From Candidatus Methanomethylophilaceae archaeon (GTDB lineage: Archaea > Thermoplasmatota > Thermoplasmata > Methanomassiliicoccales > Methanomethylophilaceae): DNA of 64,000 nucleotides. The stretch spans positions 32,001-96,000 of the forward strand of contig CALUHR010000003.1 of NCBI GenBank assembly GCA_944320495.1, given 5' to 3'. Made by a program: the position numbers and the translations under genes. Positions within the stretch are counted from its first letter, which is position 1. Every line of letters starts with the position of its first letter. Under the pieces are notes generated by a model. It was not told the DNA's origin and did no database searches. It saw only the letters and a list, made by a program, of their open reading frames with translations. This document shows, piece after piece, positions 1 to 57,524 of the stretch.

Positions 1-237
1 GGAGCCGTGAGGGAGAATGAGATGCTCTACGGCACATACCTCCACGGGATATTCGACAGGAAGCCCTTCAGGACCCATTTCCTCTCCAGGATAACGCATG
101 GAGGGGAGCGCTACGACGCCTCCGACTCCCGCGACTACGACGATATCCTCGAGGAGAACCTCGAGAGGCTGGCGGACGTGTTCGAATCCAACCTGGACAT
201 GGACGCGGTCATGCGCATGCTGGGGGTGGGCGAGTGA
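1..237 (+). CDS. cobQ: Cobyric acid synthase CobQ/CbiP, C-terminal end (partial, runs off window start)
   Basis: GTYLHGIFD motif of the CobQ glutamine amidotransferase C-terminus; TGA stop overlaps the next GTG start. Confidence 0.75.
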   Translation, partial: GAVRENEMLYGTYLHGIFDRKPFRTHFLSRITHGGERYDASDSRDYDDILEENLERLADVFESNLDMDAVMRMLGVGE

Positions 238-1076
238 GGATCCTCGTCCTCGGCACGTCCTCCGACGCAGGGAAGACCGTCATCGGCGCCATGATCTGCC
301 GCCACATGGCCCGCAGGGGGCTAGACCCCGTGCCCTTCAAGGCGTTCAACCTGTCGCTCAACTCCTATGCCACCAAGGACGGCGGGGAGATCGGGATGGG
401 GCAGACATTCCAGGCGTGGGCCTGCGGCCTCGAGCCTGAGACCGACATGAACCCCGTGCTCTACAAGCCGTCCGGCGGGGGCAGGATGCAGATGATCGTC
501 GGGGGGAGACCGCTCATGGACATCGGCAACGGCGTCGAGCCCGACAGGGAGGCGGCGGTGAGAGGGATTCGCGAGGCATACGGCAGGCTCTCGTCCGCCC
601 ACGGATGCGTGGTGTGCGAGGGGTCCGGATCCCCCGCCGAGCTGAACCTCATGTCCAGCGACCTCGCCAACACCGGGCTCATGCGCCTCCTGGGAGTGCC
701 CGCGGTGCTGGTCGCCGATATCGAGCGCGGAGGGGCCTTCGCAGCGATATACGGGACGTGGAGGATCATCCCGGAGGACGTCAGACCCCTGCTCAAGGGC
801 TTCGTGATCAACCGCTTCAGGGGCGACGCCTCCATCCTCGGGGACGGCATCAGGAGGATCGAGGAGCTCACCGGCATGAGGTGCCTGGGCGTCATACCCT
901 ATCTGCCGCTTAGGTTCCCGGAGGAGGACTCGCTGTCGCGGTCCGAGGGGAGGCTCCAGGGCGAGGACGTCAGGCAGGCGTTCCTGTCCAACCTGGACGA
1001 GCTGCTCGACGCGGCGGAGGCCGGCGGATTCGACTTCAGGCTCCTGGAGGACATCACGGACGAGGGTCAGAGCCGA
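234..1076 (+). CDS. CobQ-like protein, N-terminal ATPase/synthase domain only (280 aa)
   Basis: GTSSDAGKT P-loop, PFKAxNxSLNS, DMNPVLxKP, EGSGSPAELNL, DIERGG, INRFRGD; no GATase domain. End placed at the first in-frame CGA (1074-1076); the standard code gives 1109. Confidence 0.75.
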
Positions 1077-1166: not shown

Positions 1167-2525
1167 ATGAACAGCGAGTACAAGAGATTCATCGAGAGCA
1201 AGGCCAAGGAGTGCCAGTCCATCGACAGCTTCCCGCCGGAGCTCTACGAGAAGTTCGATGTCAAGAAGGGGCTGCGCGACAACAAGGGCAACGGCGTCGT
1301 CGTCGGGCTCACGAGCATCTCCCAGGTCGACGGGACCGAGAAGATCGACGGGAAGAAGGTCCCCTGCGAGGGCAAGCTGCGCTACCGCGGCTACGACATC
1401 GAGGACCTGACCCAGGGGTTCCTGAACAAACGCTTCGGGTTCGAGGAGTGCACCTATCTCCTGCTGTTCGGCAACCTCCCCACCCAGGACGAACTCGAGG
1501 AGTTCAAGATGCACCTGGCCGAGGAGAGGAGGCTTCCCGTCACCTTCACCAGGGACGTCATCATGAAGGCCGCCAACAAGGACATCATGAACTCCGTGTC
1601 CAGATGCATACTGTTCCTCTCCTCCTACGACAAGAACGCCCTGGACAACTCCACCAAGAACGTCCTCAGGCAGTGCATCTACCTGATCAGCGTCTTCCCC
1701 ATGCTCACCGTCTACAGCTACCACGCCTACAACCACTACATCAACGACGAGAGCATGTACATCCACCGCCCGGACCCGAGGCTCTCCACCGCGGAGAACT
1801 TCCTCAGGATGCTCAGGCCGGACAAGTCCTACACCTACCTGGAGGCCACCGTCCTCGACCTGGCGCTGGTTCTGCACATGGAGCACGGCGGAGGCAACAA
1901 CTCCACCTTCACCACCCGCGTGACCACGTCCTCGGGATCGGACACGTACGCGGTCATCGCCGCGGCCATGTCCTCCCTCAAGGGACCGAAGCACGGCGGC
2001 GCCAACCTGAAGGTCATGGACATGATGGACGACCTCAAGCGCCACGTGAAGCATCCGGACAACAGGAAGTCGCTAACCAAGTACCTCTCGGACGTCCTGG
2101 ACAAGAAGGCGTTCGACCACCAGGGCCTGATCTACGGCATGGGCCACGCGGTATACACCCTCTCGGACCCCAGGGCCAAGGTCTTCAAGTCCTTCGTCGA
2201 GAAGCTCGCCGCCGAGAAGGGGAGGCTGGACGACTACAACCTCTACGCCGCCGTCGAGGAGATCGCCCCGGAGCTCATCATGGCCAAGCACCCCAACACC
2301 ACCGGTGTCTCCGCCAACGTGGACTTCTACAGCGGGTTCGTCTACGACCTGCTCGGCATCCCGAGGGAGCTGTACACCCCGATCTTCGCCACCGCCAGGA
2401 TAGTCGGGTGGAGCGCCCACAGGATCGAGGAGATCGTCACCTCCAACAAGATCCTCCGTCCCGCCTACGTGAACATCGGAGAGCCCAGGGAGTACGTGCC
2501 CCTGGACAGGAGGGGTTCCGAATGA
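1167..2525 (+). CDS. gltA: Citrate synthase
   Basis: LHMEHGGGNNST, GPKHGGAN, GMGHAVY, ANVDFYSG, RIVGWSAH motifs; 452 aa. Confidence 0.93.
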   Translation: MNSEYKRFIESKAKECQSIDSFPPELYEKFDVKKGLRDNKGNGVVVGLTSISQVDGTEKIDGKKVPCEGKLRYRGYDIEDLTQGFLNKRFGFEECTYLLLFGNLPTQDELEEFKMHLAEERRLPVTFTRDVIMKAANKDIMNSVSRCILFLSSYDKNALDNSTKNVLRQCIYLISVFPMLTVYSYHAYNHYINDESMYIHRPDPRLSTAENFLRMLRPDKSYTYLEATVLDLALVLHMEHGGGNNSTFTTRVTTSSGSDTYAVIAAAMSSLKGPKHGGANLKVMDMMDDLKRHVKHPDNRKSLTKYLSDVLDKKAFDHQGLIYGMGHAVYTLSDPRAKVFKSFVEKLAAEKGRLDDYNLYAAVEEIAPELIMAKHPNTTGVSANVDFYSGFVYDLLGIPRELYTPIFATARIVGWSAHRIEEIVTSNKILRPAYVNIGEPREYVPLDRRGSE

Positions 2526-2971
2526 TCGGCAACCCCAGCAACAAGGCGATCAGGAACGCCAAGAAGGCGCTGGAGTCCCTGGACCTCAACTACGAGGACC
2601 GCGACGGCACCATCGTGCTGAGCGCCATGGGGGACGACCTGCCCATCGGCATGGTCATCATCGCCGACGACGGCAACATGACCCTGAACATCTACTGCTA
2701 CCTGATGTTCGACTTCGGGTCGGAGGCCAGGATGAAGCTCATCCCCGAGCTGAACACGCTGAACAACACCATAAACAACGGCGGGTTCTACATGTCGGAC
2801 GACGAGAACAAGATCTACTTCAAGATCGTCCAGAGCTTCTACGACCAGGTCCCCTCGGACGAGACCATCGCCCACCTGATCAAGGTGGCGTTCAAGACCG
2901 TCGACGTCAACGACGGCAAGCTGAAGGACCTCATCCCGAAGGACGCGATGAAGGACCTGATGTACTCGTGA
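2522..2971 (+). CDS. YbjN-like / T3SS-chaperone-fold protein (149 aa)
   Basis: ATGA overlap with gltA; MIGNPSNK...MKDLMYS; LNxLNxxxxxGxFY pattern and length fit the YbjN family. Confidence 0.6.
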   Translation: MIGNPSNKAIRNAKKALESLDLNYEDRDGTIVLSAMGDDLPIGMVIIADDGNMTLNIYCYLMFDFGSEARMKLIPELNTLNNTINNGGFYMSDDENKIYFKIVQSFYDQVPSDETIAHLIKVAFKTVDVNDGKLKDLIPKDAMKDLMYS

Positions 2972-3874
2972 TCGCCTTCCGGCGACCATCCTCTCCACCG
3001 GCCTGCGGGCACCGGCGACGACCTCGTCCGGGAGCTCGACGGCCGGTCCCATCTTCTCCAGGCACTCCAGCACGCCCTCGGGGGTTGCCATCTTCATGGC
3101 CCCGCACACGGCGGACTCGGGGAACCACCACACCCTTCCGGGGACCTCCTTATCGAGCCTGTGCCTCATGCCGACCTCGGTGAGCACGATGAACTCCCTC
3201 GACTCGGACTGGCGGCAGTGGCCGATCATGCCCTCGGTGGAACCGATGAAGTCGGCCATCGCGAGGACCGGCGCCCTGCACTCGGGGTGGGCGAGGACCT
3301 CCGCGCCGGGATGCTCGCGCCTGAGCGCCTCCACCTGGCCGACCGATATGGATTGGTGGATGGGGCAGAACCCGTGCCAGAGCTCGATGTCCTTGGATGG
3401 GTTCTTGGATGCGGCGTAGGAGCCGAGGTTCCTGTCGGGAACGAAGAGGACCTTGTCGGAGGACAGTCCCGAGACGACCTTGACGGCGTTGGACGACGTG
3501 CAGCACACGTCCATCTCCGCCTTGCACGCGGCCGTCGAGTTGACATAGCCGACGACCTCGCACCCGGGGTTGCGAGCACGAGCCTCGCGGATCTGCTCCG
3601 GGGTGCACATCTGCGCCATGGAGCACACCGCATCCGGATCGGGGATCAGCACGGTCTTGCCCGGATTGAGGATCTTGGCGGTCTCGGCCATGAAGGACAC
3701 GCCGCAGAACACGATGACATCGGCGTCCGTCTCGGACGCCGCTATGGAGAGGCCGAGGGAATCCCCGACCTTGTCGGCGATGTCCTGCACCTCTGGCAGG
3801 CAGTAGTTGTGCGCCAGGATGATGGCGTTGCGTTCGCACTTGAGCTCGGCTATCCTCTCCGAGACGTCGACCAT
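2972..3874 (-). CDS. nadA: Quinolinate synthase NadA (300 aa)
   Basis: ILAHNY, IADKVGDS, VFCGVSFMAETAK, GYVNS, CTSSNA, AHPEC, CGAMK. Ends ERMVAGR-CGA (2974-2972), abutting the TGA of the convergent gene; the standard code runs on to 2465. Confidence 0.92.
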
Positions 3875-3963
3875 GCCTGCGCGATTGACGCACCCATATA
3901 AATCATGCCCCAATCTATTTAGGAAAACCTAATCGAATGGTATATGCCCCCGATTACACGACC

Positions 3964-4673: not shown

Positions 4674-4716
4674 TTCGGCGCCAACGGATTTATCCGGGAC
4701 CCTCCATGCGAGCCCC

Positions 4717-5091: not shown

Positions 5092-5214
5092 TCCTGGTTG
5101 TTAACCCCAGGTTGAATGTATTTGGATAATACATCCAGCCTGAACATTCGGAGATGAATTAAATAAGAGGTCAACCCATACGGGATAGGCCGACCTTTCG
5201 GCGGGTTGTTGCGA

Positions 5215-8759: not shown

Positions 8760-9962
8760 TCGGAGCCTGGCAGTGGAGGACGTCCCCCTGCCCTCCCCTC
8801 CGCACGCCAGGATAACGAGGCACGAGCAGACCGCGGCCATCAGGAGGAACGCGGCGCCCAGGTACCCGATGTACGGAAGGCCGAAGGAGTCGAAGACGAT
8901 TCCCGCGAGATAGGAACCGGCGGCTATCCCCACGTTGAACGACGTTGGGTTGAGCGAGGATACGAGATTGATCGCCTCCGGATAGTCCCTGGTCCCGATC
9001 TCCAGCAGATGCACCTGCACGGAGGCGTTCATGACGTACATCATGAGCCCGATGAGCAGTATGTCGGCCATCCCGGTGACCGCGCCCGCCAGAGCCGTCG
9101 GCAGCAGGAACAGTGCCAATCCCTCCAGCAGGCATCCCCAGCGGACGGTGCGGAACCCCCCGTGGGAGGCTATCCTCCCGGACATCAGGTTGCTGGCCAG
9201 GACGGCCACCCCGTAGGCCATCAGACCGAGGGACACCATGCCCTCTGAGAAGCCGAGCTCGTCCTCGAATATCGGCGTGATGTAGGTGTACACGGCGTAG
9301 ACACCGCCAGCGCTGAAGACCGTCACCAGACATGCGAGCAGGACCCTCGGATCCCTCAGCATCCTCCGTGCCGCGCCCTTACGCCTCGGCCCCGCATGCC
9401 CTCCCGAACGCGGGAGCGTCCTCGCAGCGAAGGCCAGTGCGACGAGCGACATTACCAGTATCAGGACGAACACCGATCTCCACCCGAGGACTCCGGACAT
9501 GTAGGTCCCCAACGGGACGCCCACTATCGACGAGAGGCTGAACCCGGCGAAGACCCACGACACGGCCGCGGAGCGGTGCCTCTGCGTGACCAGGTCCATC
9601 ACGAAGGTCAGACCCACTGCCAGGAGCGACCCCGATGCGGCGGCGGTGACCACGCGGGACACCAGCAGCGGGACGTACCCCCACGACACAAGCGACAGCA
9701 GGTTGGCCAGGATGAACACGACCGCCAGGGACATGGCGAGCCTGTACCTCCCGAACCTCCCCGTGACACCCGTTATAAGAGGCGTGAACACGGCATAGCT
9801 CAAGGCGAAGACGGACACCAGCGAACCGACCGCGGTGTACTCGACACCGAGCCCCGACGCGATGTCAGGCAGGATGCCCATGACGATGAACTCGCTGGTC
9901 CCCATGACGAAGCTCAGGAAGACGAGCGCGACAACCGCCGGAGTGAACAGCCTGTCATCCAC
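8760..9962 (-). CDS. MFS transporter, DHA1/PbuE-NepI type (400 aa)
   Basis: GTSEFIVMGILPDIA, VGVPLGT, NVGIAAGS; about 12 hydrophobic segments; GTG start. Ends STARL-CGA (8762-8760), followed by a GCGATGC/GCATCGC hairpin; the standard code gives 8688. Confidence 0.88.
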
Positions 9963-16532: not shown

Positions 16533-16797
16533 CCTGTGGGTGTATCCGTAACGCCGTCATAACCGAAAGCGACATACCAGATACATGGTAGATGGTAAGG
16601 CGGATTGTAGCCCCGCCTTCGAGGATGTGGTGTGAGAAACGGGGAGGAACGCCACCCTAGCGATAGGAGGGAAACGTGACGGATGCAGGATGGCGTTTCC
16701 CCCGCCTCGGGCGCCGGATGCCGCCCTCGGCGGGGAAGGGGAGGGCCGGGTGTGTCGTCCCGGCGGTCCCCGTGGTTTCGCTCTGGTCCCTGGGGAC

Positions 16798-18186
16798 TCA
16801 GTGCTTGATGTCGAGACCGGCGTCCCTGAGGGTGGCGACGGCCTTGTCGTAGATGTCCAGGTACTCCTGGGTCGGCTTGACGGTCTTGACGTCGTAGCAC
16901 TCCTGGAAGGTCTTGCCGGCCGGAGCGTCGGTGAAGTGGGCCTCGTAGGCGGGCACGATCTTGTTCAGGATCTCGTTGACGTCGGAGATCTTCATTCCGC
17001 AGGTGGCCACGGCGGCGTTGCCCATGATCCTGGCCTCCATTCCGGTGGTCTTGTCCTGGACGACTCCCTTGGCGGCGGCGGATCCGGAGAGGAGCTCCCT
17101 TCCGGAGGCGGTGTCGGTGATCGCCTGGGCGGCGGTCTCCAGCAGGCACATCTCGGTGCAGGGTCCTGCCATCGGGTAGTACTGGTTGGCCAGGAGCAGG
17201 TCGGTGTTGGCGTCGACGGCTGCGGCTGCCCAAGCGGCGACCTGGAGGGTCTCTCTCGCAGTGGTGACTCCCCACCTGATGTGGATGGGTCCGTCCAGGT
17301 GGAAGTTTCCGCTGAAGCAGGCGAAGGATCCGAGGGTGGTGGCGACGTCGCAGATGGCGGTCTCCTCGACGCCTCCGGTGTATCCACCGAAGATGGGCAT
17401 CTGCTCGATCATGATCATGTCGCCGACGGTGGTCCATCCGGCCAGCATGTTCAGTCCGGTCATGTCGATCTTCAGCTCGTTGAGCTGGGAGCACTCGTGC
17501 GCGTCGGTGATCCTGTGTCCCGCGTTGGGGAGATCGGCGCAGAGACGTCCGGCCTCGGACAGAGGCGTCTCGGGTCCCTAAACACCCATGCCGGGCCTGG
17601 CTGCCCTAACACGGGCCTCCTTGACGGCCCTGAGCTCGGCCATGGTCGCACGGATCTCGTAGGGGGTCTTGGTCTTAGCCGGGTGGCCCTCGATCGTGGT
17701 CATGACTCCGTTGACGAGGGTGTCGACGACTCCCTCCTGGGCGTAGGACTGCATGACCTGCACGAAGACGTCCTCGGAGATCGGGGATCCGGTGGGTCCT
17801 CCCTGGATGATCGGCTTGACGTTGCTGTTGCCGTGCCTGGGGTAGAACCTGGCGATGTCTTTTCCCTCTCCGTAGATCATCTTGGTCGGGGTCTTCTTGA
17901 TTCCCTCCCAGACCTCCTCCTCGGTGACGTGCATGACACGGCCGAGGTCCTGGTTGTAGTAACCGACGGTGACCAGCATCTCAAGTCCGGCCTGGAAGAG
18001 CCTGTTGACCATGTCCTTGTCCTCGGGGACGATCTCCTTCGGGTCGAACTTGATGTTGTACTTCTCTTTGAGAGCGGTGAGGTTCTCGGGGGTGATCTTG
18101 TAGTCCCAGTCCTCCACCTTGACTTTCTTTCCCTTCACGAACCTGTCGTAGACGTCGGGGATGGTGAGTGCCCTTGTTGCTGCCAT
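16798..18186 (-). CDS. mtmB: Monomethylamine methyltransferase MtmB (copy 1), Pyl-containing, 462 aa
   Basis: Two track ORFs join through an in-frame TAG at 17580-17578: RPGMGV-O-GPETPLS, matching the MtmB Pyl context; HECSQLNELKID, EQMPIFGGY, NQYY. Confidence 0.95.
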
Positions 18187-18223
18187 TTCTTTTCCTCCTT
18201 AGTAGTTCCTATGGCGTTTTGCT

Positions 18224-18862
18224 TCAGGCTCCGACAAGCTTGTCGACGAGTCCGATGATCTCGTTCGCGGTCTCGGAGTATCCGTCGGCTCCGATCTGGT
18301 CGCACCACTCCTGGCTGCAGGGGGCTCCTCCGAAGATGCACTTGTAGGGGGCCTCCGCCTCGTTCTTGGCCTCGACGAGCTCCCTCTGGGACTCGAGGGT
18401 GGTGGTCATGAGAGCGGATCCTCCGATGACCTGCGCCTCGTTCTCGTCGGCGGCGTCGAGGAAGTCCTGGGCGGTCACGTCGGGTCCGAGGTCGATGACC
18501 TTGTATCCGGCACCGCGGAGCATGGCGCAGCAGACGTTCTTTCCGATCTCGTGGATGTCTCCCTCGACGGTTCCCATGATGACGCATCCCTTGAGGGATC
18601 CGGCACCGGCGGTCATGAGGGGCTCGAGGATTTTGAGGGCCATCTCCATGGTCTTGGATGCGGCGACGACCTGCGGGAGGAAGATCTCGGCCTTGTCGAA
18701 CCTGTCGCCGATGACTTCCATTCCCTTTCCGAGTCCGTCTCCGATGATCTCTGCGACGGAGATGTTGGCGTCGATGGCCTTCTGGGTGGCCTCCTGGACG
18801 AGCTTTATGTCCCAGGTCTCGACAGACTTCTTCAGATCTGCAAGGATCTCCTCTTTGCTCAT
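18224..18862 (-). CDS. mtmC: Monomethylamine corrinoid protein MtmC (copy 1)
   Basis: GTVEGDIHEIGKN B12-binding DxHxxG motif, SALMTTT, FGGAP; directly upstream of mtmB. Confidence 0.92.
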   Translation of the reverse strand: MSKEEILADLKKSVETWDIKLVQEATQKAIDANISVAEIIGDGLGKGMEVIGDRFDKAEIFLPQVVAASKTMEMALKILEPLMTAGAGSLKGCVIMGTVEGDIHEIGKNVCCAMLRGAGYKVIDLGPDVTAQDFLDAADENEAQVIGGSALMTTTLESQRELVEAKNEAEAPYKCIFGGAPCSQEWCDQIGADGYSETANEIIGLVDKLVGA

Positions 18863-23342: not shown

Positions 23343-24062
23343 ATGGACACAGAGGAGATTCTCAGGAACCTATAGGATTCGGTCGTGAAGCTCGACGTGG
23401 ACGGCTGCCGCAGATACGCGGAGATCGCCATGGACTCCGGCATGCCTCCAGAGGAGGCCATTGAGAGGGGACTCGCACGTGGCATGGACCGCATCAGCGA
23501 CATGTTCGACGAGGGCACCGCCTATCTCCCCCAGATCCTGATGGCATCGAAGGCCATGGACGCCGCCCTGGACGTCATCATCCCGCATATCGAGAGGCAG
23601 GGGTCCTGTCTCCGCGGGATAGTCGTCATGGGATCCGTCAAGGGCGACATCCACTCCATCGGCAAGAACGTGTGCTGCGCCATGCTCCGCGGCGCCGGAT
23701 TCAAGGTCGTCGACCTCGGAACGGACGTGGATCCGGACAAGTTCGTCAAGGCCGTCGAGAAGCATCATCCGAACGTGGTCGGCGCCTCGGCACTCATGAC
23801 CGTCAGCCTCCCCCAGCAGAGGCAGCTGGTGCGCATCTTCAGGGAGAACGGCATATCCGTTCTCACCATCTTCGGCGGCGCCCCCTGTAGCCAGGAGTGG
23901 GTCGATGAGATCGGAGGGGACGGGTACTCCGACTCAGGCGCGAGCATCGTCAGGCTCGTGCGCTCGCTCCTTGGCATCGACGTCCAGGTCGGATCCGGCC
24001 AAAAGGATTATATCGGAATTGACCGGGATGGGGAGCCAGATGACGGCCAAACGCTATGTCGA
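23343..24062 (+). CDS. mtmC: Corrinoid protein MtmC (copy 2) with an in-frame TAG at codon 11
   Basis: RBS, then ATG 23343: MDTEEILRNL-O-DSVVKLD aligns with MSKEEILADL-K-KSVETWD of copy 1; GSVKGDIHSIGKN motif. 3' end uncertain: first in-frame CGA at 24060-62, TGA at 24078-80. Confidence 0.85.
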
Positions 24063-25419
24063 CATTTTCGAGGCATATGACCGGTTCTTCAAGGGGGAGC
24101 GCGTCACCGAGAACGACTGGGACTACAACATAGTCCCGAAGGCGGCGGCCGACATCAAGGAGAAGTTCAAGATCTCGTTCGGAAGGGACATCATCCCCAC
24201 CGATGAGGACCTGTGCGAGAGACTGTTCCTCGCAGGCATCGACATGCTCCTCACCACCGGGTTCTACAACACCGATCTGAAGAGGGTCATGAGGATCGAC
24301 GAGGACGAGCTCTTCGAGGGACTCAAGATGGCGCCGACGAAGCTGCAGCTCGGCTCCGGCAAGGACCAGCGCGAGTGCCAGGCCCGCCGCGGCAACGCCC
24401 GTCGCAAGCCCATCATCCAGGGTGGCCCTACCGGGGCGCCCGTGTCGGAGGCGAGCTTCGTCCCCATGATCCGCTCTTACGCCCAGGAGCCCGTCGTAGA
24501 CACGATAGTCAGCGGGGTCCTGAGCACCATCAACAACCATCCGGCGACCACCAACACGCCCTGGGAGATCCGCGCCACGATGGCCGAGACCAGGTACGTG
24601 AGGGAGGCATGCCTGATGGCCCAGCGCCCAGGCATGTGCATCTAGGGGCCCCAGACCCCCCTCTCCGCCGCGGGGAGGCTGGCGTCGGACCTCACGCAGC
24701 ACGGCCTCAAGCCCTACGACGCCCACGAGTGCTCCCAGCTGAACGAGCTGAAGATCGACATGTCCGCCCTGAACATGATGGCGGGCTGGCAGGCCGTGGG
24801 GGACATCGTCATGATGGAGCAGATGCCCATCTTCGGAGGCTACGTCGGAGGCGTGGAGGAGACCGCGATCTGCGACGTGGCGACAATGATCGCATCGTTC
24901 GCGATATTCGACTGCGACATCCACCTGGACGGCCCGATCCACATCAGATGGGGGACCACGACCACCCGCGAGACGCTGAAGATCGCCGCGCACGCCGCGG
25001 CCGCTCTGGACCAGAACACCGATTTCCTGCTGGCCAACCAGTACTACACGATGGCCGGGCCCTGCACGGACATGTGCCTGCTGGAGATCGCCGCCCAGGC
25101 GATGACCGACACCGCCTCCGGCAGGGAGCTCCTCTCCGGCGTGGCGTCGTCCAAGGGAGTCAGCCGCGACAGGACCACGGGCATGGAGGCCAGGTTCATG
25201 GGGGAGGTCTCGCTCGCGACCTGCGGGATGAGCATAGAGGACGTCAACAGCACGATCGACAACGTCCTGAAGCTCTACGAGAAGGACTTCGCGAAGGCGC
25301 CCCAGGGAAAGACGTTCCAGGAGTGCTACGACGTCACCACGATGGAGCCCAGCGACGAGTATGTGGAGCTCTACGACAGGATGGTGGACGTCCTCGGTAC
25401 CTGCGGGATGGACTTCCGA
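24040..25419 (+). CDS. mtmB: Monomethylamine methyltransferase MtmB (copy 2), Pyl at codon 202, 459 aa
   Basis: In-frame TAG at 24643-45: RPGMCI-O-GPQTPLS; collinear with copy 1. Ends GMDF-CGA (25417-19), aligned with the GLDIKH* end of copy 1. Confidence 0.92.
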
Positions 25420-25758
25420 TCGCTCCTTGTTCTCCTCGGACACCAGGTTGAGGCCGGCCACCCCGGCGACGATCATGAAGAGGCAGATCCAGCCGACCCA
25501 GTTCAGACCCTCGTCCATCCAGATCATGCCCACCACGACGGCCCCCACGGCGCCGATGGCCGTCCATACCGCGTAGCACGGGCCTGTCGGGAGACCGTGC
25601 CTGAATCCGAGGTTGAGCAGGTACATGCTGATGCCCAGGAAGATCATCATGGGGATCATCCAGAGAGGCTCGGAGAACCCGTCTGTGAACTTCAGGCATG
25701 TCGCCCATGCGGTCTCCGCGACGCCTCCTGCGAGGACGTAGAGCCATCCCCTGTTCAC
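25420..25758 (-). CDS. Small multidrug resistance (SMR/Gdx-like) subunit, 112 aa
   Basis: GGVAETAWATCLK (membrane Glu), GLPTGPCYAVWTAIG; 4 TM; GTG start. Ends EENKE-CGA (25422-20); the standard code runs 1.5 kb antisense through mtmB2. Confidence 0.88.
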
Positions 25759-26087
25759 AGCACCATCCCCCTGGAGAGCTCGAGGCCTACGACACCAGCG
25801 AGGATCAGCCCCACCAGGACCATCTTGACCGCCCCGACTGCCTCCCTGTACAGGAAGTACCCGACGGCCATGGTGCACACGGCACCGATGCCGGTCCACA
25901 TGGCGTAGGAGACGCCCATGGGTATCGTCTCCATACCCACGCCCATAAGGACGGGACTGAGGACGGCGAAGAACACGGTCGCCGCGAGCCATGCGATCCT
26001 GCGGTCCTCGTCGAACCTCTTGAGCGTTATGACCCAGACGGGCTCCAGCAGCCCGGCGGCGATTATCCACAGCATCCCTGCGTCCAT
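25755..26087 (-). CDS. SMR family subunit (partner of a paired SMR), 110 aa
   Basis: AGLLEPVW, IPMGVSYAMWTGIG; GTGA overlap with the next SMR gene. Confidence 0.88.
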   Translation of the reverse strand: MDAGMLWIIAAGLLEPVWVITLKRFDEDRRIAWLAATVFFAVLSPVLMGVGMETIPMGVSYAMWTGIGAVCTMAVGYFLYREAVGAVKMVLVGLILAGVVGLELSRGMVL

Positions 26088-26897: not shown

Positions 26898-28850
26898 ATG
26901 TCTCAACCTTCAGGAGGACCCGTCGCCGAGGGCGGCGGACGCGTCCTCAGGGTGGCCCTCGTGGGCCAGCCCAACGTGGGCAAATCCTCGCTCTTCACCC
27001 GCCTGACCGGCGTGGGCGTGATATCCTCGAACTACCCCGGCACCACGGTGACGTTCGAGGAGGGCGCCATCACCAGGAACGGCTCCACAGTCAGCGTCCG
27101 CGACCTGCCCGGCACCTTCGGCATATCCGGGAACTCGGACGACGAGAGGGTCGTCATCAGGAACCTGAGGGAGCAGGGGTTCGACTGCATCATACTGGTG
27201 GCCGATGCCACCGGCCTGTCCGGGAGCCTTGTGCTGTGCGAGGAAGCCCTCGAGCTGGGGCTCCCGACCATCGTGGCGCTCAACAAGATGGACGAGGCCC
27301 GCAAGAGGCTGTCCATCGACAGCTCGAAGCTGGAGGAGGCCCTCGGCGTGCCGGTAATTCCGGTGTCCTCGAAGACCTCCGAGGGCGTCGACGAGCTCGC
27401 TGACGCGGTATGCGCCGGGAAGGCGAGGCTCCCCAAGTCCGACATGCGCTTCGACGACGGGATCGAGGCGGCCATCGCAGGGATAACTGAAGCCCTGCCG
27501 GACGGCATGCCATTCTCCAAGCGGGGCGTGGCCATCAAGATCCTCGAGCACTCGCCCGAGTTCGACCCCCTGGCCGACGACGACACCCGCCGTTCAGCCG
27601 GCCTCATGCGCCGCGTGTACTCGGAGCGCGAGGGCAGGTCCATGGCGGTGTCCATCGCCACCGAGAGGTACTCGTGGGCGGAGAAGGTCGTGTCGTCCTG
27701 TGTCGAGAAGGACGAGAGCAGGCTGTCCCTTGCCGACAGGATATCGGACATCACAATCACGCCGATCACCGGCCTGCCGATCCTCGTGCTGATATGCCTC
27801 GGCATACTCACGGTGATCGTCTACGCCGGCTCGTTCCTCGACGGGGTGGTGAACGGTGTCTACAGCTCCGTCATCGGGAGCGCTCTCATCGACTTCGGCC
27901 GCTCCATCGGAGGGGACTTCGGCGAGGCCGTGTTCACCGGGATCGACGGGAGCTTCCAGGCGATGCTGGCGCTCGTCATCCCCTACATCCTCGTCTTCTA
28001 CATCATCCTGGGCATCCTGGAGGATTCCGGATACCTGACCAGAGCGGTCGTGCTCCTGGACAACATAATGCACCACTTCGGTCTCCACGGAGGCTCTTTC
28101 ATCCCCATGATCGTCGGCATCGGGTGCAACGTGCCGGCCATCCTGGCGGTGCGCACGGTCAAGTCCCGCAGGGAGAAGATCATCCTCTCCTCTATAATCA
28201 TCATGGCCGTCCCCTGCTCGGCGCAGCTGGCCATAATCATGGGCGCCACAGGGTCCTACGCCGGGGTGCTCTATGCGTTCGGCATCCTCGTGATGCTCGT
28301 CTGCCTCGGCATGGCGGTCGGCGTCCTCATGAACAGGTTCCTGAGATACGAGCCAAGCGACCTCGCCATGGAGCTGCCCCCGCTGCAGATGCCCACGGTC
28401 AAGAACATCCTGTTCAAGACCTGGCACAGGATCAAGGACTTCCTCTACATCGCGTTCCCCCTGCTCGTGGTGGGCTCCATCGTGGTGGAGATCCTCATCT
28501 CATACGATCTGCTCGGGGCCATCGTCGATCCGCTCTCGCCCATCACCGTCGGCATCCTGGGACTTCCGGCCGTCTGCACCATAGCGTTCATCGTCGGCAT
28601 CCTGAGGAAGGAGATGGCCGTAGGGATGCTCTCGGTACTGGCAGGAGGGGTCGCCCTGGAGGAGTTCATGACGCCGGACCAGTTCGTGGTGTTCGGAGTG
28701 GTGATGGCGGTGTACATGCCGTGCCTCGCCACCCTCCTGACGATGTGGCGCGAGATCGGGTGGAAGGAGACCATCTGCGTGAGCGTCCTGTCCATAGCGG
28801 TGGCCATCGCCCTCGGAGGGGCGGCCAACCTGCTGCTCCAGCTGTTCCGA
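26898..28850 (+). CDS. feoB: Ferrous iron transporter FeoB (650 aa)
   Basis: GQPNVGKS, NYPGTTV, DLPG, NKMD, LEDSGY, GIGCNVPA, PCSAQ, YMPC. Ends LLLQLF-CGA-CGA (28848-53); the standard code gives a 986-aa run-on over ubiD. Confidence 0.93.
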
Positions 28851-41902: not shown

Positions 41903-41943
41903 CTTTCATCCTCCAGCAATGAAGGGGGCCGAGCCCCCTGTTT

Positions 41944-43128: not shown

Positions 43129-43216
43129 TCTATCACCTTGTTGCTTGGCCCCGAGATCGCCTCATCAGCGGACTCGAGCCGAAGTTGTTTCATGGGATCC
43201 TCGGCTGCGACAGCAA

Positions 43217-46200
43217 TCGGCGTCCGCTGCCTACCGCCTCCAATCCGCCTTCTAGATCCGGAAGGATCGTGATGGTCAGTCCCGTCCCGTCATGGAACAC
43301 TGTGAACTGCCCAGTTCCCGCCCCTTCCACTTTAAGAGTCTTGGAGTCCGCATCGTAGGATACCAGATGCGTATCGCTCCATGTGAACACATGGACCTGG
43401 AATCCGGGAACCCCGAGATCGACAACCACACCCTGCGCGAACTGCGACTGGGTGGCCGTCACGCTTATGACTTCGGGAACCCCCGCTTCGCCCGTGAGCC
43501 GCGGCATCGCATAGTATGTTATGGTCTGGGAATCACCAGCCTCGATGGAATCGACCACGGCATAGACGCCGTCGGACATCTCCATCCAGACCTGGGAGTC
43601 CCCCACAACCAGGACACTCGCATTGTCGCAGTGCGGTGCTTTCTTTTCCGAGATAATGGTCCATCTCTCACTGTCGAAGAGTGAACCGTCCAGAGAACGG
43701 TACTCTATGGTGTAGGCTATCAGGTCGAGATGCACCGTGCCCTCGAACCTGTCGGACGTCAGCGGGATGCTGATCGTTCCGGTCTCGAATCCTTCCAGAC
43801 CCACCGTGAGCTGGGTGCTGTTGTACGCATCCGTCGGCACCTGTGCGGTGAAGATCATACGAGCGTCGGAGATAGTGCCGTCGACAATCGTGACAGTCGA
43901 GGAGGATCCGAGGCTGAAGTCAAACCTTATCGACATCCCCGTGAGCCTGGATACCATCTCCTCATCCAGCTCGTTCTCGCTCTCATCGCGGAATACCACG
44001 ATGATTGACACCTCTGTGCTCTGGAGCGTCGCGATGAGCTCCACATCCACCGTTCCGAGGACAAGATACACCATTGAGGAACCTGTCATGGTTCCGGCAT
44101 CGGTGCCGACCTGGGAGGTGGACATGGTGTATGCATCCTCAGTGACAACGGTCAGGATGTACCCCTCGAAGAGAACATCCCCTTCTTGGGCTTCGACCGC
44201 TCCGCTCTCGTTTCCGGATACATCCACGGATGCGACATTCACTGATGATATCCCTTCCCCGATGTCCTTGAGCTCCACCTGCCGGTAGACGGAGAACGTT
44301 AGCTCCACATCCTCCTGGACATCGAGATTCAGTGTCACACTCACGGTCACCCTCCCGCCAATGCTCCCACTATCCGAATCAGTGAGCATCCTCTCGCCCA
44401 TCCACATCGCGTAGCGGTAGCCTGTGGGAAGACTGACTGAGATCGTGATCGATCCAGAGTCAACGACGGCACCCTTCGAATCAGGATTGTTGCCGGTAAA
44501 CGATATGCTTCCGAAACTCCCGAATGAGATCGTCGCTGAGCCATCGCCGAGACCGCTGGAAAGGCCATCGTCCCCGGTGTAACCTACGGTGACGGTGACC
44601 CCAGTCCTGAGATGGATCTCCAGCTCCAGGGTCCCCTCACCATCGTCACCGGCATTCGGCACTACAAACGCCATCTCCATCCCGGGGACCCCGCTGATGG
44701 CTACGCTGTTGTCTCCATAGGAACAGACAGCGGATGAGATCCTGTAGCCATCATCAGCGGTCACGACGACCCTGAGCCCGAACGCCACGCTCAGTGTGGC
44801 ATTCCAGGAACCCGAGCTCGGAGTCCAAGATATCTCCTCTGTGGACCAGAGCCCCTCGAACGAGAGCACTGAACTGGGGTCGCCACCCTCGACGATGACT
44901 TTCATTGTGTACTCGTTCGGCTCCCAAGGCACGTACAGTGTGGTGTCGGTGTACAGGACTGTATCGTCGAAAGAGAATTCGTCTGCATCCGTGAATCCCC
45001 CAACAGGTGCTGAGGAACTCAGGGTCCAGTACTTTCCTGCGAGATGATACCCGGGATATGCCGTGGCGGCCGTGCCGTCCCAGGGTATGACCAGTCCCTC
45101 CCCTTCATCTCCCGGTTCGCCGATGCCGTTGGCCTTCAGCGTGGTCCCGGGTCTGATGTAGACGCTGGTGGTCTCTAGATGGACGTACTGTCCGACGAAA
45201 GAGACCTTGATGCCGAACTTGGCGGTGAGGGTCAGTGACTCCTTGAGCTCGGACGTCATGTTGTACTTCAGAGTCTCGCTGACGTACCAGCCGTCGAGAC
45301 TTTTGAAATATGTGAAGATCGACCCATCTTTCAAGGTTTCGTCGGGGATTAGCGTCAGGAGCCATCCCATCATCTCCCCGATGGTCCCGGTGACCTGCTG
45401 ACCGTCCCTCATGTATGTAATGGTCTCGCTCTCGAGGATGCCTCCGAAGGGGATCTTGATGGATTCCGAGGGGGAATCTGACCATACGAAGGTGTAGATT
45501 CCAGTACTCTGATCCATGGTCACTTCGAGACCGTGTACTTCCCCGTCGATGTCCTTGTATTGAAGGGCCAGGTCCACGGGCTTGGCCTCTTGGAAATGAA
45601 CCGTGACACGATAGTTCACAGTCTCACTACCAGCGGTAGCAACCACGGTGAACACTGTGGACTGCATCTCGCCATCGCCGGAATAGAATATCCTCATTAC
45701 CGAGTCCTTGACACCGCCCTCTCCGAACTCCTTACCTTTGGCATCGGAACCGTTGAGGCCGTCGCTCATGTACTGCGATGCCACCCAGCCCTTGCTGGAC
45801 AGATACGTGGTGTCCGCGAACAGCGTCAGATCCCCGTCGACATCGCTCGTAATCGTGTAGGAGTGCCTGTTTCCGAGGGAGGGGAATAGGACATACCCGG
45901 TACCAGTGCAACGTCCGCCCGACACGGTGGTCATTATGGTGACAGACAGATCGATCGTTTCCGGTACGCTCCTGGGGAGGACGTTGAGCGTGACCTCGAC
46001 ATCGACGAAGTTCACGGGCAGATAGCTTACACTCCCGTTTAGCGTATACGGGATTACCTCCGCCAGGTGCAGAGTGATCACCCCTACGTTCCCCGTCGTC
46101 CCGAAGACGGTCGTTTGATTCATACCGAGATATGAGTTCGATATCAGGGAAGCATCGACGCGTATGGCGAAGTCGTTGGCATTTCCTACTTCTTCGTATG

Positions 46201-49200
46201 CCGAATCACCGCTGAAATAGTACCTCTGGAGCGAATCCCTGCCGGATCCGCTCACATATTCGTGGGTCTTTACGGCGACCTGCTTGGTATTATCCCCGGC
46301 ATCGGATCCGCTGATGGTCATGCTGAAGAAGTCCGAAACGCCAATATCATCAACCGGATTGAATCCGTCTGCCCTCACGTAGCTGTTGTAATCACCCTCT
46401 GTCAGGATATAGAACCCGTTCTGGACAGTGGGATTCGCATATGCCGCTGCGTACGCCAGCATAGAGCCGTTGGACATGTGCGGAAGGATCGCGGTGCCGG
46501 TGGCGCTCCAGTTCTGGGACCCGTCATCCGATGTCGTCCCGAAGTTCAGGACCATCCCCACGCTTACATGCCCCGAGATATACCAGGTCTTGGTCTGGCT
46601 GTTGCCGGTTCCATATATGTAGCTAGCAGGGGAAAGTCTCCCACTATCATCCCTGATGACAAAGCCTGACTCCTCGTCAGTGTACATTGATCCCACAGCA
46701 AAGGCTCCGTAATAGGTATCGCCGGCGGCCCTCGATATGATCGTGTATCCTTTGATGAGTCCTATCCCGTCATCTTTGTTATTCGGACCGATGTCGTCGG
46801 GACCGAGGATGTAGAGCATCCTCCCATCGCGCAGGACGATCTCGTTACCGGTCCCATCCTCATATCCTGTCGTATAGTCCCCGGACTGGGCCAGGTTTCC
46901 GTCGATGTAGCTCTCGTAGCTCTGGATGCCCGATGTCTGAGCCCTCAGATCCAAGACTGTCCCGCCGCCCAGGACGAGCTTCTTCGTGATGCTGTTGATG
47001 GAGACGCTGATGGAAAGGCCCGTGGACGTTCCGTCAGCTGATCCTTCCACGACGATACTGGCATTCTCTATCAGAAGCTCGTTAGCACGCTGGATGGACT
47101 GGATGAAATATTCGCAATCCTGATCGTAATCATGGATGCTGATGGTCGACGTGCCGCCTATCGCACTGTAGTTCCCCTGCCCGAAGATATCGCCGTAGAT
47201 GCTGATCTTCGGAACATCCGATACATCGCTGGGACCTGGCATCACATATCCTGCGAAACCGATGGATGGAACGGGACCGCCGGAAATCTCGATCGTAACA
47301 TCCCCCATCAGCAGCTCGCTGCCCTCCTGGAACGCGGCCTCGCCAGGGGAGTTGAGGTTACCTCCGCCGTAGATGCTGTTGATCCTGAGGTCGTATCCCG
47401 AAACACCGTTGTAGACGGTCAAATACGGAACCGCACCCTCGGCCTCGACGGCGCAAGAGCCCACGAGGATTGTGGCATCCATCAGGGAATGACCCATGAA
47501 GCCCCCTCCATAGACGCCCTGCATGACGACACCGGCCAGGAGACGGATGCTGACGCTACCGACGGCATTTTTGGATTGGTTGCCATCGTAGTCTTGGGGG
47601 GCATCGTGGCCGAGCCTGCTTCCCCCATAGACGCTACCGTTTATCGTAGCACCGTTGATGACCAGCGTCCTCTCGCCGTTCGACATTATGGACTTCGCAT
47701 CGGAGGCCTCGGGCTCATCATCCGGCACTACACCGTAGCCACCGCCGTAGACGTCGCCGTTGACTGTGGAGCCTCCTCCGATGCTGATGCACACCGATTC
47801 TGCTTCGGTGTACGCAGCCGCTCCTCCTCCGAACACCGCATACTGGGTGCTCGTCTCGCCGACATTCGATGCGAACACCGAGACGGAGATGCTATCCACA
47901 TCCACCTTTGCGATATCTGGTTGACCTGTGACCCCTTTACCTCCGCCGAAGATCGCCCCAAGAACTTTGGCTGGATTCGCGGTGGAACCAGTCACGATGA
48001 CGGAGATCGAGGGCCCGGAGACCAGACCGAGTGCCCCTCCCCCATAGACGGATTCTTCGACCGTGCCGCCGGAGATGGTGACGGACGTGCCACCGGTGAC
48101 CATCGCGACATCCTTGCTGGTGTCTCCATCGACTCCCATGCCTCCGCCGTAGACGGATTCTTCGACCGTGCCGCCGGAGATGGTGACGGACGTGCCGCCG
48201 AAGACAGAGGCCACATCTGATGTGCCCTTGCCGTTGTATACGACGCCTTCACCTCCTCCGTATATTGAACCCACGACAGTCCCATCTTGCATGATGATGC
48301 TCGTGGTCCCGTAGACATAGGCTTTTCCTGTAGGATCGTCTTTTGTTTCTGCATATTCAGCTTCACTGAGCGGATCTGCCCCTCCGCTACCGCCGCCGAA
48401 AACCGATCCTGTGATCTTTCCCCCGAGGATATTGACAGTGGTGGACCCCTGTTCGTCAGTATAGACGGTTCCCACGGTTCCTCTGAACCCTCCCCCATAT
48501 ACCGAGCCGTTCACAACCGCCGATTCCTTGATTGTCACATCAGTGTACCTGACTCCAGGCCCTTTCGTACTTGCAAAGGTGTCCCAACCACCTCCAAGCA
48601 CATCTCCCGGATATTCTGATGTCCCCACCTTTGCGGAGCCACCGATGACGACATTTGCCGTCACCACCGGGAACTCATCTGATGGGTTGCCGTCGGTCAC
48701 CGCGCCGCAGACCATGTACACGACGTACGAATCCCCGGCTACTGTGACGTTGGCAGTGTCCACGTGAGATGACTGGCCTGACCTCCCTCCACCCTGGACT
48801 GCGAACACCTTGGCTTTGCCGACGATATCGACATTGCTCGTAACGACTTCACCAAGACGAGAGCCGCCGACGACCGTCTGATAGACGGAGTTCGTAATCG
48901 AATGGATGTTCCCATCCCAGATGCTTCCTCCGGCGATGAGAACGTTGGTCTCCGACAGCTTCGACTTATTACTCTGGACCCCGTGCCCCCCATAGACGGA
49001 ATCCGTCACCGTCCCGCCGAGGATCTTCACGGATGTTGTGGCTTCAGCGGAGCTGGATCCGGATGAACCACCCATTATTGTCTGATAATTGCCACTGAAG
49101 ATGACTATGTCGGATGAAGTTCCACTGGAGGAGAGTCCGCTTACCTGCACACCTTTACTGGAATCTGAGATCCCCGTGCCCAGTATGACGGACTTACTGT

Positions 49201-50176
49201 TCCCACGGATACCTTCATCTTGATTTCCGTGAGCGTTTGCAGATGCTTCCTTTCCGTCAATACGGACATTATCGATGATACAATCCGCTTGGATGTCCCA
49301 GGTGGAGTTAAAATTCAGAGTCTTTAGAGAACCATTCTTGCTGTCGCTGTCTGAGACGTAGCTCCTGATCGTGACGGTCTTGTTTATCGTGCTTACGGCG
49401 ATGTTCCGACTCTCATTATCATCGAAATACAGAAGGATGATGCTGCGATATTTTGCCTGGGGACCATCAACAATTGATATTCCTTCATTCCACCACCCAT
49501 CAAAGACACTATCTTCACAACCATTCAGCGCATAGTCCAATGTCGTCGGTTCAGACCGCGTTCCATCGTCTCTTTCCCGATGGACCAGCGAACTATTTCC
49601 GTTATCATCGTCATCATGCCCATCAACATAGCGGACATCGTAAAGTGTGTCCCACTGAGCTGTGAGTGTCAGAGTCTTATTATTCCAAAGCCCAGCATAC
49701 TCTGATGATAGGAGATCCGTTCCCGGATCGACGACATAGTCAGTTCCCGAGACCTTCCATCCGACGAACACAATCGTCTGTTTTTTCACATAGTCTTCTA
49801 TGATATACCAATCTTCCACGGTATTCGCATAACCGGCTCCCGTGACGACGGTCGCATGCTCATCTATGCTACTAGAATAACCAGAAGAGGCCGTACTCCA
49901 GAACTGCGGGTTGTATTCGGCCACAGCATAGCCGTCGTACTTCACCTTCACATTCTGATAGCCTGTGCTGTCCGGGTCACTGTTGTTCCCTGTAGGCAGG
50001 CCTTTTACTGTGCCCGGCTCATACACGACATAGTAGTCATCATCGGTGAAGTCCGTATCATCCGGATCTGCCGAATACAGGACGGTGATGCACGATAGCA
50101 GCATGAGGGCTACAGCTAGGATCGCGAAGGCTCTGACAGAGTGCTTATGACTTCCTCCACTCGTCCTCGCAAACAG
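43217..50176 (-). CDS. Giant Gly/Ser/Thr-rich secreted adhesin-like protein (about 2300 aa) with repeated (V/I)(Y/F)GGG motifs
   Basis: Open frame 50104-43190; the upstream in-frame HKHSVRAFAILAVAL extends the signal peptide, so a CTG start at 50176 after GGAGGG is possible. First CGA at 43219-17 (GSGR-CGA). More A/T-ending codons than flanking genes. Confidence 0.75.
48045..48196. repeat. 47-bp exact direct repeat pair, 105 bp apart, inside the giant adhesin gene
   Basis: 48045-48091 equals 48150-48196; encodes (G)GTSVTISGGTVEESVY(GGG) twice. Confidence 0.85.
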
Positions 50177-55453: not shown

Positions 55454-56380
55454 TCGTGCCCTCCCGATCCTCTCCCTCGCCCTGTCCAGGAGCTGGCAGG
55501 ACTTGCAGCTTCCTCCGAGCGTGGGCTCCCCGCAGCGGGGGCACGGGTGCATCTCCGTCTCCGGCAGACCTGCCCTCAGCATCGGCTTCAGGGAATCGTA
55601 CGACGAGAGTATGCCGAACCTCGCCCCGGGCGAGCGGTCCTCGAGCTGGTCCACGATGTCGCGGTACTGGTTCCTCAGGGCGGCCTCCCAGTAGGGGCAC
55701 ACCCCGTCCCAGAACTCCATCCCCGAGACGATTGCGTATAGCAGCGTCTCCTTCTCCGGGATCGTCCTCAGCGGGAGGAACCTCGGGACGAGACCGGGCT
55801 TCACGACGTCGTGCGGTGCCATGCGCGCCAGGCGCTCCACGTCGCCCCTCACGAAGTTCATCATGATCGACTGCGACATGTCGTCCAGGTTGTGGCCCGT
55901 CGCCAGATACCTGGCGCCGATCCTCCTCGCCTCGTCGTTCATGAGCATCCTGCGGAACACGCCGCAGTAGGTGCAGGGGCTGCTGTCCCCGCTCACCGGC
56001 GCGATCTCGTCCATCGTCACTCCCATCTCCGAGAAGGAGCGCAGATGGAACCCCACACCGTTGGATTCGCAGAACCTCCTGACGATGTCCACGCTGGGCG
56101 GGCGGTAGCCCGCGATGCCCTCGTCGATCGTTATCGCATGGAGCTCGACGCCGTTCCTCTCGTTGAACACCGACGCCAGCATCCTGAGGGCGACCATGCT
56201 GTCCTTCCCCCCGGACACGGCGACGGCTATCCTGTCCCCGCGGGAGACGTCGATCTGCTTGCGGATCTCCCTCTTGACCCTGCGGTCCACGTACCTCATG
56301 AAGTGCTCGGCGCAGAGGTGCGTGCCGTTGTACCTCACGAACGTGACGGCGTCGCGGCCGCAGACGTCGCAGGATGTCAT
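55454..56380 (-). CDS. tRNA 2-thiolation protein TtuA/NcsA/Ctu1 family (308 aa)
   Basis: CDVC...HLC zinc site, AVSGGKDS PP-loop, CTYCGVFRR, ATGHNLDD, CPY, CPRCG...CKSC. Ends RIGRA-CGA (55456-54). Confidence 0.92.
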
Positions 56381-57524
56381 CCTCACCCTCCAGGATCGCC
56401 TCCATCTTATCGGCGAGCACCTTGGACGGTATGTCCGGCAGGACGATGACCGCGGTCCTGCCCGTCTCGTTGTCCACCACCGTGAGCCTGATCGCCCCGA
56501 TCTTGTCCAGGTCCTGGAGGTACTTCCAGAACTGAGTGTGCTTCCGGGCGGGGACCTCGTACTCCTCGCACACCACCGCATAGGTCCTCTCGGCGGCGGC
56601 CGCCGGGATCGAGGGGTTCTTCTTCATGGCGCGGGCGACCGCGAGCAGCACCAGCTTCCTGTTGATGTCCAGGGAACGGAGCTTGGAGTCGGACACCGCG
56701 CTGTATATCATGGCCTTGGCGGCCCTCACATGGTCCACGTCGACCTCGCCGGAATCGTCCTCCTCGGCGATGTTCGCCGCCCTGTCCAGGAGCTCGATGG
56801 CCATCCTGGCGTCGCCGTACTCGGCTGCCTCCTCGGCTATGACGTCGAGGGCATCGTCCGAGCACCTGCCCGGGAACAGCGCCTCCTCGGCGCGGGAGCC
56901 GACGATCTCCCTGAGCTCGGCCATGCTGTAACGGTCGAACCTGACGACGTTGGTCCTCCTGAACGTGGAGAGCGAGGCCTCGTCGAGCACCATGTCCAGG
57001 GGCTCCTGGGAGATCATGATGACCGACACGGGCGCGGAGCCCTCCCTCATGCGCGTCAGCTGGTAGACCAGGTCGGTGGATCCCTTCCTCAGGAGCACGT
57101 CCACCTCGTCCAGGATCACGGTCATCGCCCTGCGGTTCGATGCCAGATGCTGGGAGAGCACCCTCGCCATGTCGTCCTGGGAGAACCCCCTGCCCGGGAA
57201 CCCGGGGTCGTAGTGCCTGATGAGCTGCAGGAGCACCCCGGTCTCGGAGGTGTTCCGGCAGTTCACGTAGATGACGTCCAGGGCCTTGCCGGCGGATCCC
57301 ATGTAGTCGGCCATGTCCCGGCAGAACCTGCGGGCGGTGACCGTCTTCCCGGTGCCCACCCCTCCGGTCAGGAACGCGGTGCACTGGCGGCCGTCGAGGG
57401 CGAGCGGACGGAACAGCGTCTCCAGACGGGAGAGCTGCCCGTCCCTGTTGACCAGGCTCTTCGGGATGTACGCGAAGTCGAGGACCGACCCGTCGCGTAT
57501 GATCGTGGACCTCCGCTCGAACAT
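56367..57524 (-). CDS. cdc6: Orc1/Cdc6 replication initiator (385 aa)
   Basis: GGVGTGKT, YVNCR, ILDEVD, FDRYSMAELREI, GDARMAIELL, wHTH. Ends EDDIL-CGA (56369-67); the standard code gives 717 aa over the whole downstream gene. Confidence 0.93.

Follow-up and report, generated by a model that had tools for sequence, protein, structure and literature searches.

How do two genes that converge on each other come to an end when neither has a standard stop codon where they meet? The question arises in a 64,000-nucleotide stretch of DNA (hereafter the window, G000:C3:32001-96000) from the 1.77 Mb, 61% GC genome G000 of a Candidatus Methanomethylophilaceae archaeon. Here, mtmB2 (24040..25419, + strand), which encodes a monomethylamine methyltransferase of 459 aa (Pfam MtmB, E = 5e-224), abuts a gene of the small multidrug resistance (SMR) family (25420..25758, - strand; 112 aa; Pfam Multi_Drug_Res). 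The letters at 25405-25428 read GGG ATG GAC TTC CGA/TCG CTC CTT, and the palindromic hexamer CGATCG (25417..25422, both strands) supplies the last codon of both genes with a gap of zero. On the + strand, CGA at 25417-25419 is in frame with the open reading frame (ORF) 24760..25419, and on the - strand TCG at 25420-25422 is a CGA in frame with the ORF 25420..25758. Thus the proposal of the first-pass annotation, that the hexamer gives each strand an in-frame CGA closing mtmB2 and the SMR gene respectively, is borne out by both the letters and the ORF frames. Under the standard code (table 11), the + frame would continue for another 163 codons, to 25908, and the - frame for another 490 codons through antisense mtmB, matching the distances of 0.5 kb and 1.5 kb given there for the next standard stops. 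A second junction pointed out at 2969-2974 is also present, with TGA (2969-2971) closing a YbjN-like gene (2522..2971, + strand) and TCG (2972-2974) providing the complement of the terminal CGA of nadA (quinolinate synthase, 313 aa; 2972..3913, - strand), so that the two halves form a zero-gap TGATCG. At 25417-25422, the two convergent ends adjoin without a gap as a palindrome, which is the arrangement of a TGATCA-type junction. Taking these data together with those below, we consider it very probable that CGA is a termination signal in this genome, and that mtmB2 and the facing SMR gene both close at CGATCG without a spacer.

The proteins that end at CGA appear to be complete. For the mtmB2 product (24040-25416), the whole MtmB profile (1-450 of 450) matches residues 7-457 of 459, so that the Pfam match stops two residues before the CGA. 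The in-frame TAG of this gene at 24643-24645 is read through as in other MtmB genes, presumably as pyrrolysine. The SMR protein is matched over positions 2-93 of the 93 of the Multi_Drug_Res profile, and the NadA profile is matched over 1-294 of 295. When the table-11 read-through version of the C-terminal part of MtmB was used as the query against a collection of 5.8 billion proteins, 887 relatives were obtained, nearly all of which align to no more than the first 57% of the query; approximately 880 MtmB homologues end exactly at the residue before the mtmB2 CGA. Only three public clusters, with 54 members in total known as protein sequence, run on past the MtmB end with an 'R' and the same tail: P0003 (41 members), P0004 and P0005 (12 members on 10 contigs). 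The run-on tail was 84% identical vs 99% for the MtmB part in P0003, and 38% vs 79% in P0005. Such faster divergence of the tail than of the MtmB part is as expected if the tail frame is untranslated. A deletion or misassembly at the junction was also considered, and is unlikely in view of the three separate public clusters, the genome-wide rule described below and the other genomes of the genus.

Comparison of the loci of the archaeal release factor aRF1 places the genome in the Methanomethylophilaceae, next to Candidatus Methanoprimaticola (91% identity to sp. MG2), and the mtmB/SMR junction is kept in three other genomes of the same genus, G009, G013 and G010. It reads TGAGTTCA in G009 and TGAGCTCA in G013, and in G010 it consists of a TGA, a longer spacer and then the end of the SMR gene. 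In all three genomes, the mtmB TGA falls in the alignment column of the mtmB2 CGA of the window, and in G009 the SMR gene continues for the same five residues past the NLVS motif as in the window before it reaches TGA. Thus the TGAs of the relatives sit at the columns and residue counts of the two CGAs of the window. At the nadA junction, G109 has TGATCA, the form in G099 and G080 is TCATGA, with an overlap, and the near-identical G018 shares TGATCG with the window. TGATCA-like forms had been expected at the orthologous junctions, and this expectation held, with TGA..TCA at mtmB2/SMR and TGATCA at nadA. In the rpoB neighbourhood of 40 other genomes of the family, the orthologous ends of genes that end with CGA in G000 were TGA (36), TAA (9), CGA (6) and TAG (1), i.e. 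standard stops at 46 of the 52 ends. The compact tail-to-tail layout of the window is the same as the TGA..TCA of its relatives, and the relatives and the genome-wide rule both support the earlier suggestion that CGATCG is the CGA analogue of TGATCA rather than the outcome of two stop-loss mutations. At the mtmB2/SMR junction itself, no RNA fold (fold z = +1.26) and no terminator-like sites were found, and its exact 24-mer had no match in the JGI metagenomes.

The behaviour of CGA over the whole genome was analysed with a codon model that gave CGA and the standard stops a score of zero; for the scan of the window and of other genomes, the model was trained on four-stop ORFs, since models trained on standard-stop ORFs only failed at high GC and gave nonsense even for the window. 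In-frame CGAs that came after 40 strongly coding codons numbered 376; the coding signal continued past 1.1% of them. The corresponding values were 3.2% for TGA and 7.3% for TAA, but the rare sense codons CGG, AGA and CGT reached 47-68%. Among 1425 confident genes, 1018 end with TGA, 341 (24%) with CGA, 45 with TAA and 21 with TAG. In the window, the gene ends are TGA (35), CGA (11), TAA (1) and TAG (3), and the codon-model scan detected no in-frame CGA inside its genes. An alignment of approximately 110000 codons from 20 genomes of the genus contained no in-frame CGA at all. Thus CGA is gone from the sense positions of conserved genes, and it is found where homologues end or have standard stops: it marks real gene ends, is purged inside genes and is replaced by standard stops at the same places in orthologues. 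A local artefact was ruled out, as the composition was uniform over all 14 contigs and the same pattern was seen in other genomes.

Two further observations concern the genome at large. At G000:C8:55685 and G000:C13:194145, an in-frame CGA has coding signal on both sides; one of the two lies inside flavodoxin-like sequence (...GKTI-R-PFCTNEGSG...) and the other directly ahead of a HAD-phosphatase-like start (...FGS-R-AVFIDRDDT...). Read-through sites, a fused pair of genes and pseudogenes are all candidate explanations. At apparent gene ends with TAG, the preceding base was G in 95% of 58 cases and a strong three-base periodicity followed. Rather than closing genes, many of these TAGs may be in frame (pyrrolysine) or artefacts that lie out of frame.

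Zero-gap junctions turned out to be a preferred place for CGA. A gap of zero was found in 21 of the 154 convergent pairs detected, and CGA was used in 20 of the 21, the hexamers being CGATCG (8, including the 25417 junction, C3:57417), CGATCA (8), TGATCG (4, including that at 2969) and TGATCA (1). CGA accounts for 28 of the 42 stops in these pairs vs approximately 20% genome-wide (binomial p = 6e-11). Avoidance of TGATCA owing to a restriction system was ruled out as the cause of CGATCG, since the four hexamers were about equally frequent in the genome (614-792 copies). The bases downstream of CGA are not random either: the +4 base is T at 59% of CGA ends vs 31% of TGA ends (p = 2e-16), A or T hardly ever occurs at +5, and TCG is the most frequent next triplet. 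In an abutting pair, the complement of each stop places T and C at the +4 and +5 positions of its partner. The richness of zero-gap junctions in CGA would then arise because abutting stops give each CGA a UC context. From the lowest to the highest quintile of codon bias, the share of CGA among gene ends was 41, 31, 28, 15 and 5%, where the first value may be inflated by spurious ORFs in the lowest quintile. Given this fall with codon bias, CGA looks like a weaker stop than the standard ones. A standard stop follows immediately at 6.6% of CGA ends vs 3.3% of TGA ends (p = 0.02).

A tRNA with the anticodon UCG is encoded at C13:413317-413390. A comparison of 12 genomes of the genus showed that the anticodon is invariant and that the 19 other base pairs of this tRNA are all kept, six of them via compensatory changes, but the 31-39 pair is unpaired in all 12 (A.A, C.A or U.C). 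A second form of the tRNA, with C33 and a C.C mismatch at 27-43, is present in G008, G015, G007 and G005. By comparison, the arm is canonical and fully paired, with U33, in four genomes from other genera (G033, G077, G124 and G050) and in an outgroup family (G024), and G034, from a fifth other genus, has a single mismatch in the anticodon arm, at 28-42. All genomes of the genus that were examined have kept this tRNA under selection. Its loss in some species, which had been considered since BLAST and a simple pattern search missed it in G008, G015, G007 and G005, was ruled out when a covariance model found the copies in these four genomes.

aRF1 is encoded by a single-copy gene in which one in-frame CGA is found, at a conserved arginine position 20 residues after the NIKS motif (NIKS+20). 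The frame is open through this CGA, and the aligned residue is the conserved arginine of 'ARLKTYK'. The NIKS+20 CGA is present in 15 of 16 genomes of the genus and in 35 of 37 public loci at least 82% identical, with no other CGA in those genes. Thus the release-factor gene contains a conserved in-frame copy of the very codon proposed to be regulated, as in the prfB type of autoregulation, but a programmed +1 frameshift bypass was not found in aRF1. Avoidance of T at +4 of the internal aRF1 CGAs was not supported, as TTG followed in 5 of 44 cases, equal to the leucine baseline. The substitutions scored as specific to the genus cluster at NIKS -5, -2, +5 and +7 and just before YxCxxxF, the methionine at +7 being family-wide and so not genus-specific. 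Nearly all aRF1 genes from outside the genus contain one or two CGAs at the recurrent sites -47, -33, -31, -8, +20 and +65. Among them are genera in which aRF1 has kept a single CGA, at -33 or -47. In most other genera (aRF1 loci L193-L235), CGA is kept in aRF1 and there is none in approximately 3500-5600 conserved codons around rpoB; CGA and the release-factor gene may have been linked since before the genus arose.

The distribution of CGA within the family is uneven. Most genera of the family have no CGA in those approximately 3500-5600 conserved codons, and g19 and g22 use CGA for arginine. In the g16 genome, eight CGAs were preceded by coding signal and none of the eight was followed by it, several of them lying 1-5 codons from a standard stop; a list of CGA-ended ORFs drawn up for g16 (tblastn check) consisted so largely of antisense ORFs that it was set aside. 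Within the genus, CGA is found at 18 of approximately 100 gene ends in G013, and two genomes with the C33 form of the tRNA, G008 and G015, have 0 and 1 CGA ends per 120 kb (p = 9e-6) and no CGA inside genes either. This pattern, read from the genomes, suggests a stepwise history of the CGA change within the family, in which CGA may have been purged across the Methanomethylophilaceae, subsequently tolerated near gene ends and finally put to general use as a stop in the Methanoprimaticola lineage, whose GC content is higher.

How might termination at CGA work? We propose that the single aRF1, with lineage-specific changes flanking NIKS, could release the chain at CGA, and that it would do so in competition with the retained tRNA-Arg(UCG), whose atypical anticodon arm is presumably weakened. 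CGA would then be the poorer stop, preferring a following U (often UC) and being shunned by genes with strong codon bias. The conserved in-frame CGA of aRF1 could let the level of aRF1 tune its own synthesis, and tRNA-Arg(UCG) may have been kept because the aRF1 mRNA holds that codon. Put together, CGA would be a leaky, context-dependent fourth stop read by aRF1, balanced against a weakened tRNA-Arg(UCG) and sensed via aRF1's own CGA; it would have arisen stepwise, and would be without precedent both as a stop codon beginning with C and as a sense-to-stop change in a free-living organism. For this fuller proposal, taken as a whole, we see about an even chance of its being right.

Besides the possible inflation of the lowest codon-bias quintile and the family-wide methionine at NIKS+7, which have been mentioned, several points weigh against termination by aRF1 at CGA. 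Termination at this codon is deduced from sequence alone. The few in-frame CGAs inside genes, in aRF1 and at C8:55685 and C13:194145, indicate that CGA is no absolute stop. The in-frame CGAs of aRF1 genes are not all in non-T contexts, and thus the context rule is a statistical one only. The aRF1 substitutions are confounded with phylogeny, the outgroups being only approximately 60% identical. Finally, tRNA-Arg(UCG) is retained and evidently functional, whereas strict reassignments usually lose the cognate tRNA.

Three other explanations have to be set against termination by aRF1. CGA could be a starved, nearly unassigned codon, at which ribosomes stall owing to the weakened tRNA-Arg(UCG), so that a rescue route (Pelota-type or drop-off) has to free the chain. 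The atypical anticodon arm throughout the genus fits this idea, as do the few CGAs of g16, which lie within a few codons of standard stops, and the C33-form genomes, which have hardly any CGA as stop or sense codon (0 and 1 per 120 kb), as for an avoided codon rather than a stop. However, one gene in four, mtmB2, feoB and cdc6 among them, would then need rescue in every round of its synthesis, and the marked preference for the base after CGA fits release-factor decoding, for which such a preference is known in other systems. Factor-mediated release at CGA also has a precedent, in that yeast eRF1/eRF3 is reported to act on this codon (PMC7379694). We therefore regard stalling and rescue, the main rival, as an unlikely source of these gene ends.

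Conversion of CGA into UGA by editing after transcription is suggested by the fact that the two codons differ by exactly one C-to-U change and the relatives have TGA at the same places, but approximately 340 edited sites would be required. We know of no mRNA-editing system in archaea. Editing would also leave unexplained the selection on tRNA(UCG), the CGA at a conserved arginine of aRF1 and the changes of aRF1 near NIKS, and it is accordingly very improbable. Least credible of all is that CGA is ordinary arginine and that the junction came about through misassembly, deletion or two stop losses with long overlapping extensions. Both frames are indeed open under table 11 and a tRNA-Arg(UCG) gene exists; nevertheless, the coding signal stops at CGA genome-wide, the extensions run antisense to conserved genes and diverge much more quickly than the MtmB part, ends of the CGA type recur in three independent public clusters and in genus genomes from different projects, and CGA is absent from approximately 110000 conserved codons. 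On these grounds arginine can be all but dismissed as the meaning of the terminal codons, and termination at CGA, probably by aRF1, is the reading that we retain.

The window contains further genes that end with CGA. Immediately upstream of mtmB2, a corrinoid protein gene (23385..24062, + strand; 225 aa; Pfam B12-binding and B12-binding_2) ends with CGA and overlaps the start of mtmB2 by approximately 23 nt. On the other side, a partner SMR gene (25755..26087, - strand; 110 aa) ends with TGA, with a 4-nt overlap with the start of the downstream SMR gene. CGA also ends a CbiA/MinD-type ATPase gene (234..1076, + strand), an MFS transporter gene (8760..9962, - strand), feoB (26898..28850, + strand; 650 aa), where the next standard stop is 336 codons on, and a TtuA-like PP-loop ATPase gene (55454..56386, - strand). 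The same is true of a cdc6/orc1 gene (56367..57524, - strand), in which the next standard stop is 332 codons on, a gene for a 320-aa protein without a Pfam match (57526..58488, - strand) and a HAD hydrolase gene (61030..61686, - strand), where the CGA is followed by TCG to give CGATCG.

Some other features of the window deserve mention. A second mtmB copy on the - strand (18186..16798) has an in-frame TAG after 17578 and ends with TGA. Antisense to it, a 514-aa ORF (16690..18234, + strand) without a Pfam match ends with CGA; this ORF is spurious, and calls for caution with ORF-based stop counts in a GC-rich genome. In the region 30673-37578, a 665-aa ORF without a Pfam match ends with TAG at 32668-32670, and a 1624-aa ORF with Listeria-Bacteroides repeats starts 11 codons past this TAG in the same frame; these may be two adjoining genes or one protein read through TAG (pyrrolysine). 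The stretch 40600-50100 has a lower GC content (53-58%) and contains a 2295-aa ORF (43217..50104, - strand) without a Pfam match, whose codon score is under the genome norm and which ends with CGA (CGATTG). It may be an acquired island that nonetheless obeys the CGA rule.

If CGA is indeed a stop in this genus, public table-11 gene calls for its members carry false C-terminal extensions and overlaps, the 382-aa 'MtmB' clusters being an example. Full-text literature searches gave no account of CGA serving as a stop in this lineage, and we found sense-to-stop changes described for organelles only. The present case would be the first such change outside organelles and would provide the first stop codon beginning with C, challenging the view that release factors of the eRF1/aRF1 family need U at the first position. 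It would also offer a natural system in which the stop and sense readings of one codon coexist, perhaps under self-regulation. The group includes a RefSeq genome, that of Candidatus Methanoprimaticola sp. MG2, and the claim would be directly testable if this strain were cultured.

Among known systems, the organelle codes are similar in that a codon with a standard sense meaning ends genes and vanishes inside them. Examples are AGA/AGG in vertebrate mitochondria (table 2), UCA in Scenedesmus (table 22) and UUA in Thraustochytrium mitochondria (table 23), and the codon is an arginine codon in table 2 as it is here. However, organelle genomes are tiny, and the present change would affect the chromosome of a free-living archaeon with approximately 1700 genes, in which the cognate tRNA is kept. 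Furthermore, CGA starts with C, whereas U is the first base of the stops in the standard code and in tables 22 and 23. A -1 frameshift has been proposed as the explanation for human mitochondrial AGA/AGG. At 25417, the one-base-shifted codons are CCG and GAT, and on the opposite strand GCG and GAT, none of which is a stop; since a shift at any CGA gives NCG or GAN and never UAA, UAG or UGA, that model is not applicable here. Bacterial prfB (RF2) is autoregulated through an in-frame stop in its own gene, with escape by a +1 frameshift, and it resembles aRF1 in that a factor gene holds a conserved in-frame copy of the codon which the factor is proposed to read. The two differ in that the aRF1 frame is open, with the CGA at a conserved arginine, so that escape would be by decoding through tRNA-Arg(UCG), in a feedback that is at present only proposed. 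The TGATCA and TCATGA junctions of compact prokaryotic genomes have the same geometry as CGATCG and are the forms present in the relatives; the difference lies in the first base of each stop, which is C.

Arginine codons have also been reassigned in bacteria, involving AGG, CGA and CGG (Shulgina and Eddy 2021, PMC8629427), and CGA/CGG to tryptophan in Absconditabacteria is listed in bioRxiv 10.64898/2026.04.02.715157. There, as here, rare arginine codons change meaning, CGA among them, but all of the bacterial changes are sense-to-sense and some were described in low-GC genomes, whereas in the present 61% GC genome CGA would become a stop. Also comparable are two Njordarchaeales assemblies in which CGG is tryptophan, CGA is missing from known domains and tRNA(UCG) is not found; the same preprint raises CGA as a possible stop and leaves its meaning open, without evidence from gene ends (bioRxiv 10.64898/2026.04.02.715157). 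Although this is again an archaeon with CGA missing from conserved domains, the Njordarchaeales belong to another phylum, and in the present genome CGG is still sense, tRNA(UCG) is present and the gene ends were examined directly. Finally, in yeast, eRF1/eRF3 are reported to act on CGA (PMC7379694, FEBS J 2018). Such action of an eRF1-family factor on a one-base neighbour of UGA would make a plausible molecular starting point for the change proposed here; in yeast this happens by mistake, or as a rescue, at a sense codon that is rare, whereas in this archaeon CGA is the regular end of approximately a quarter of the genes.

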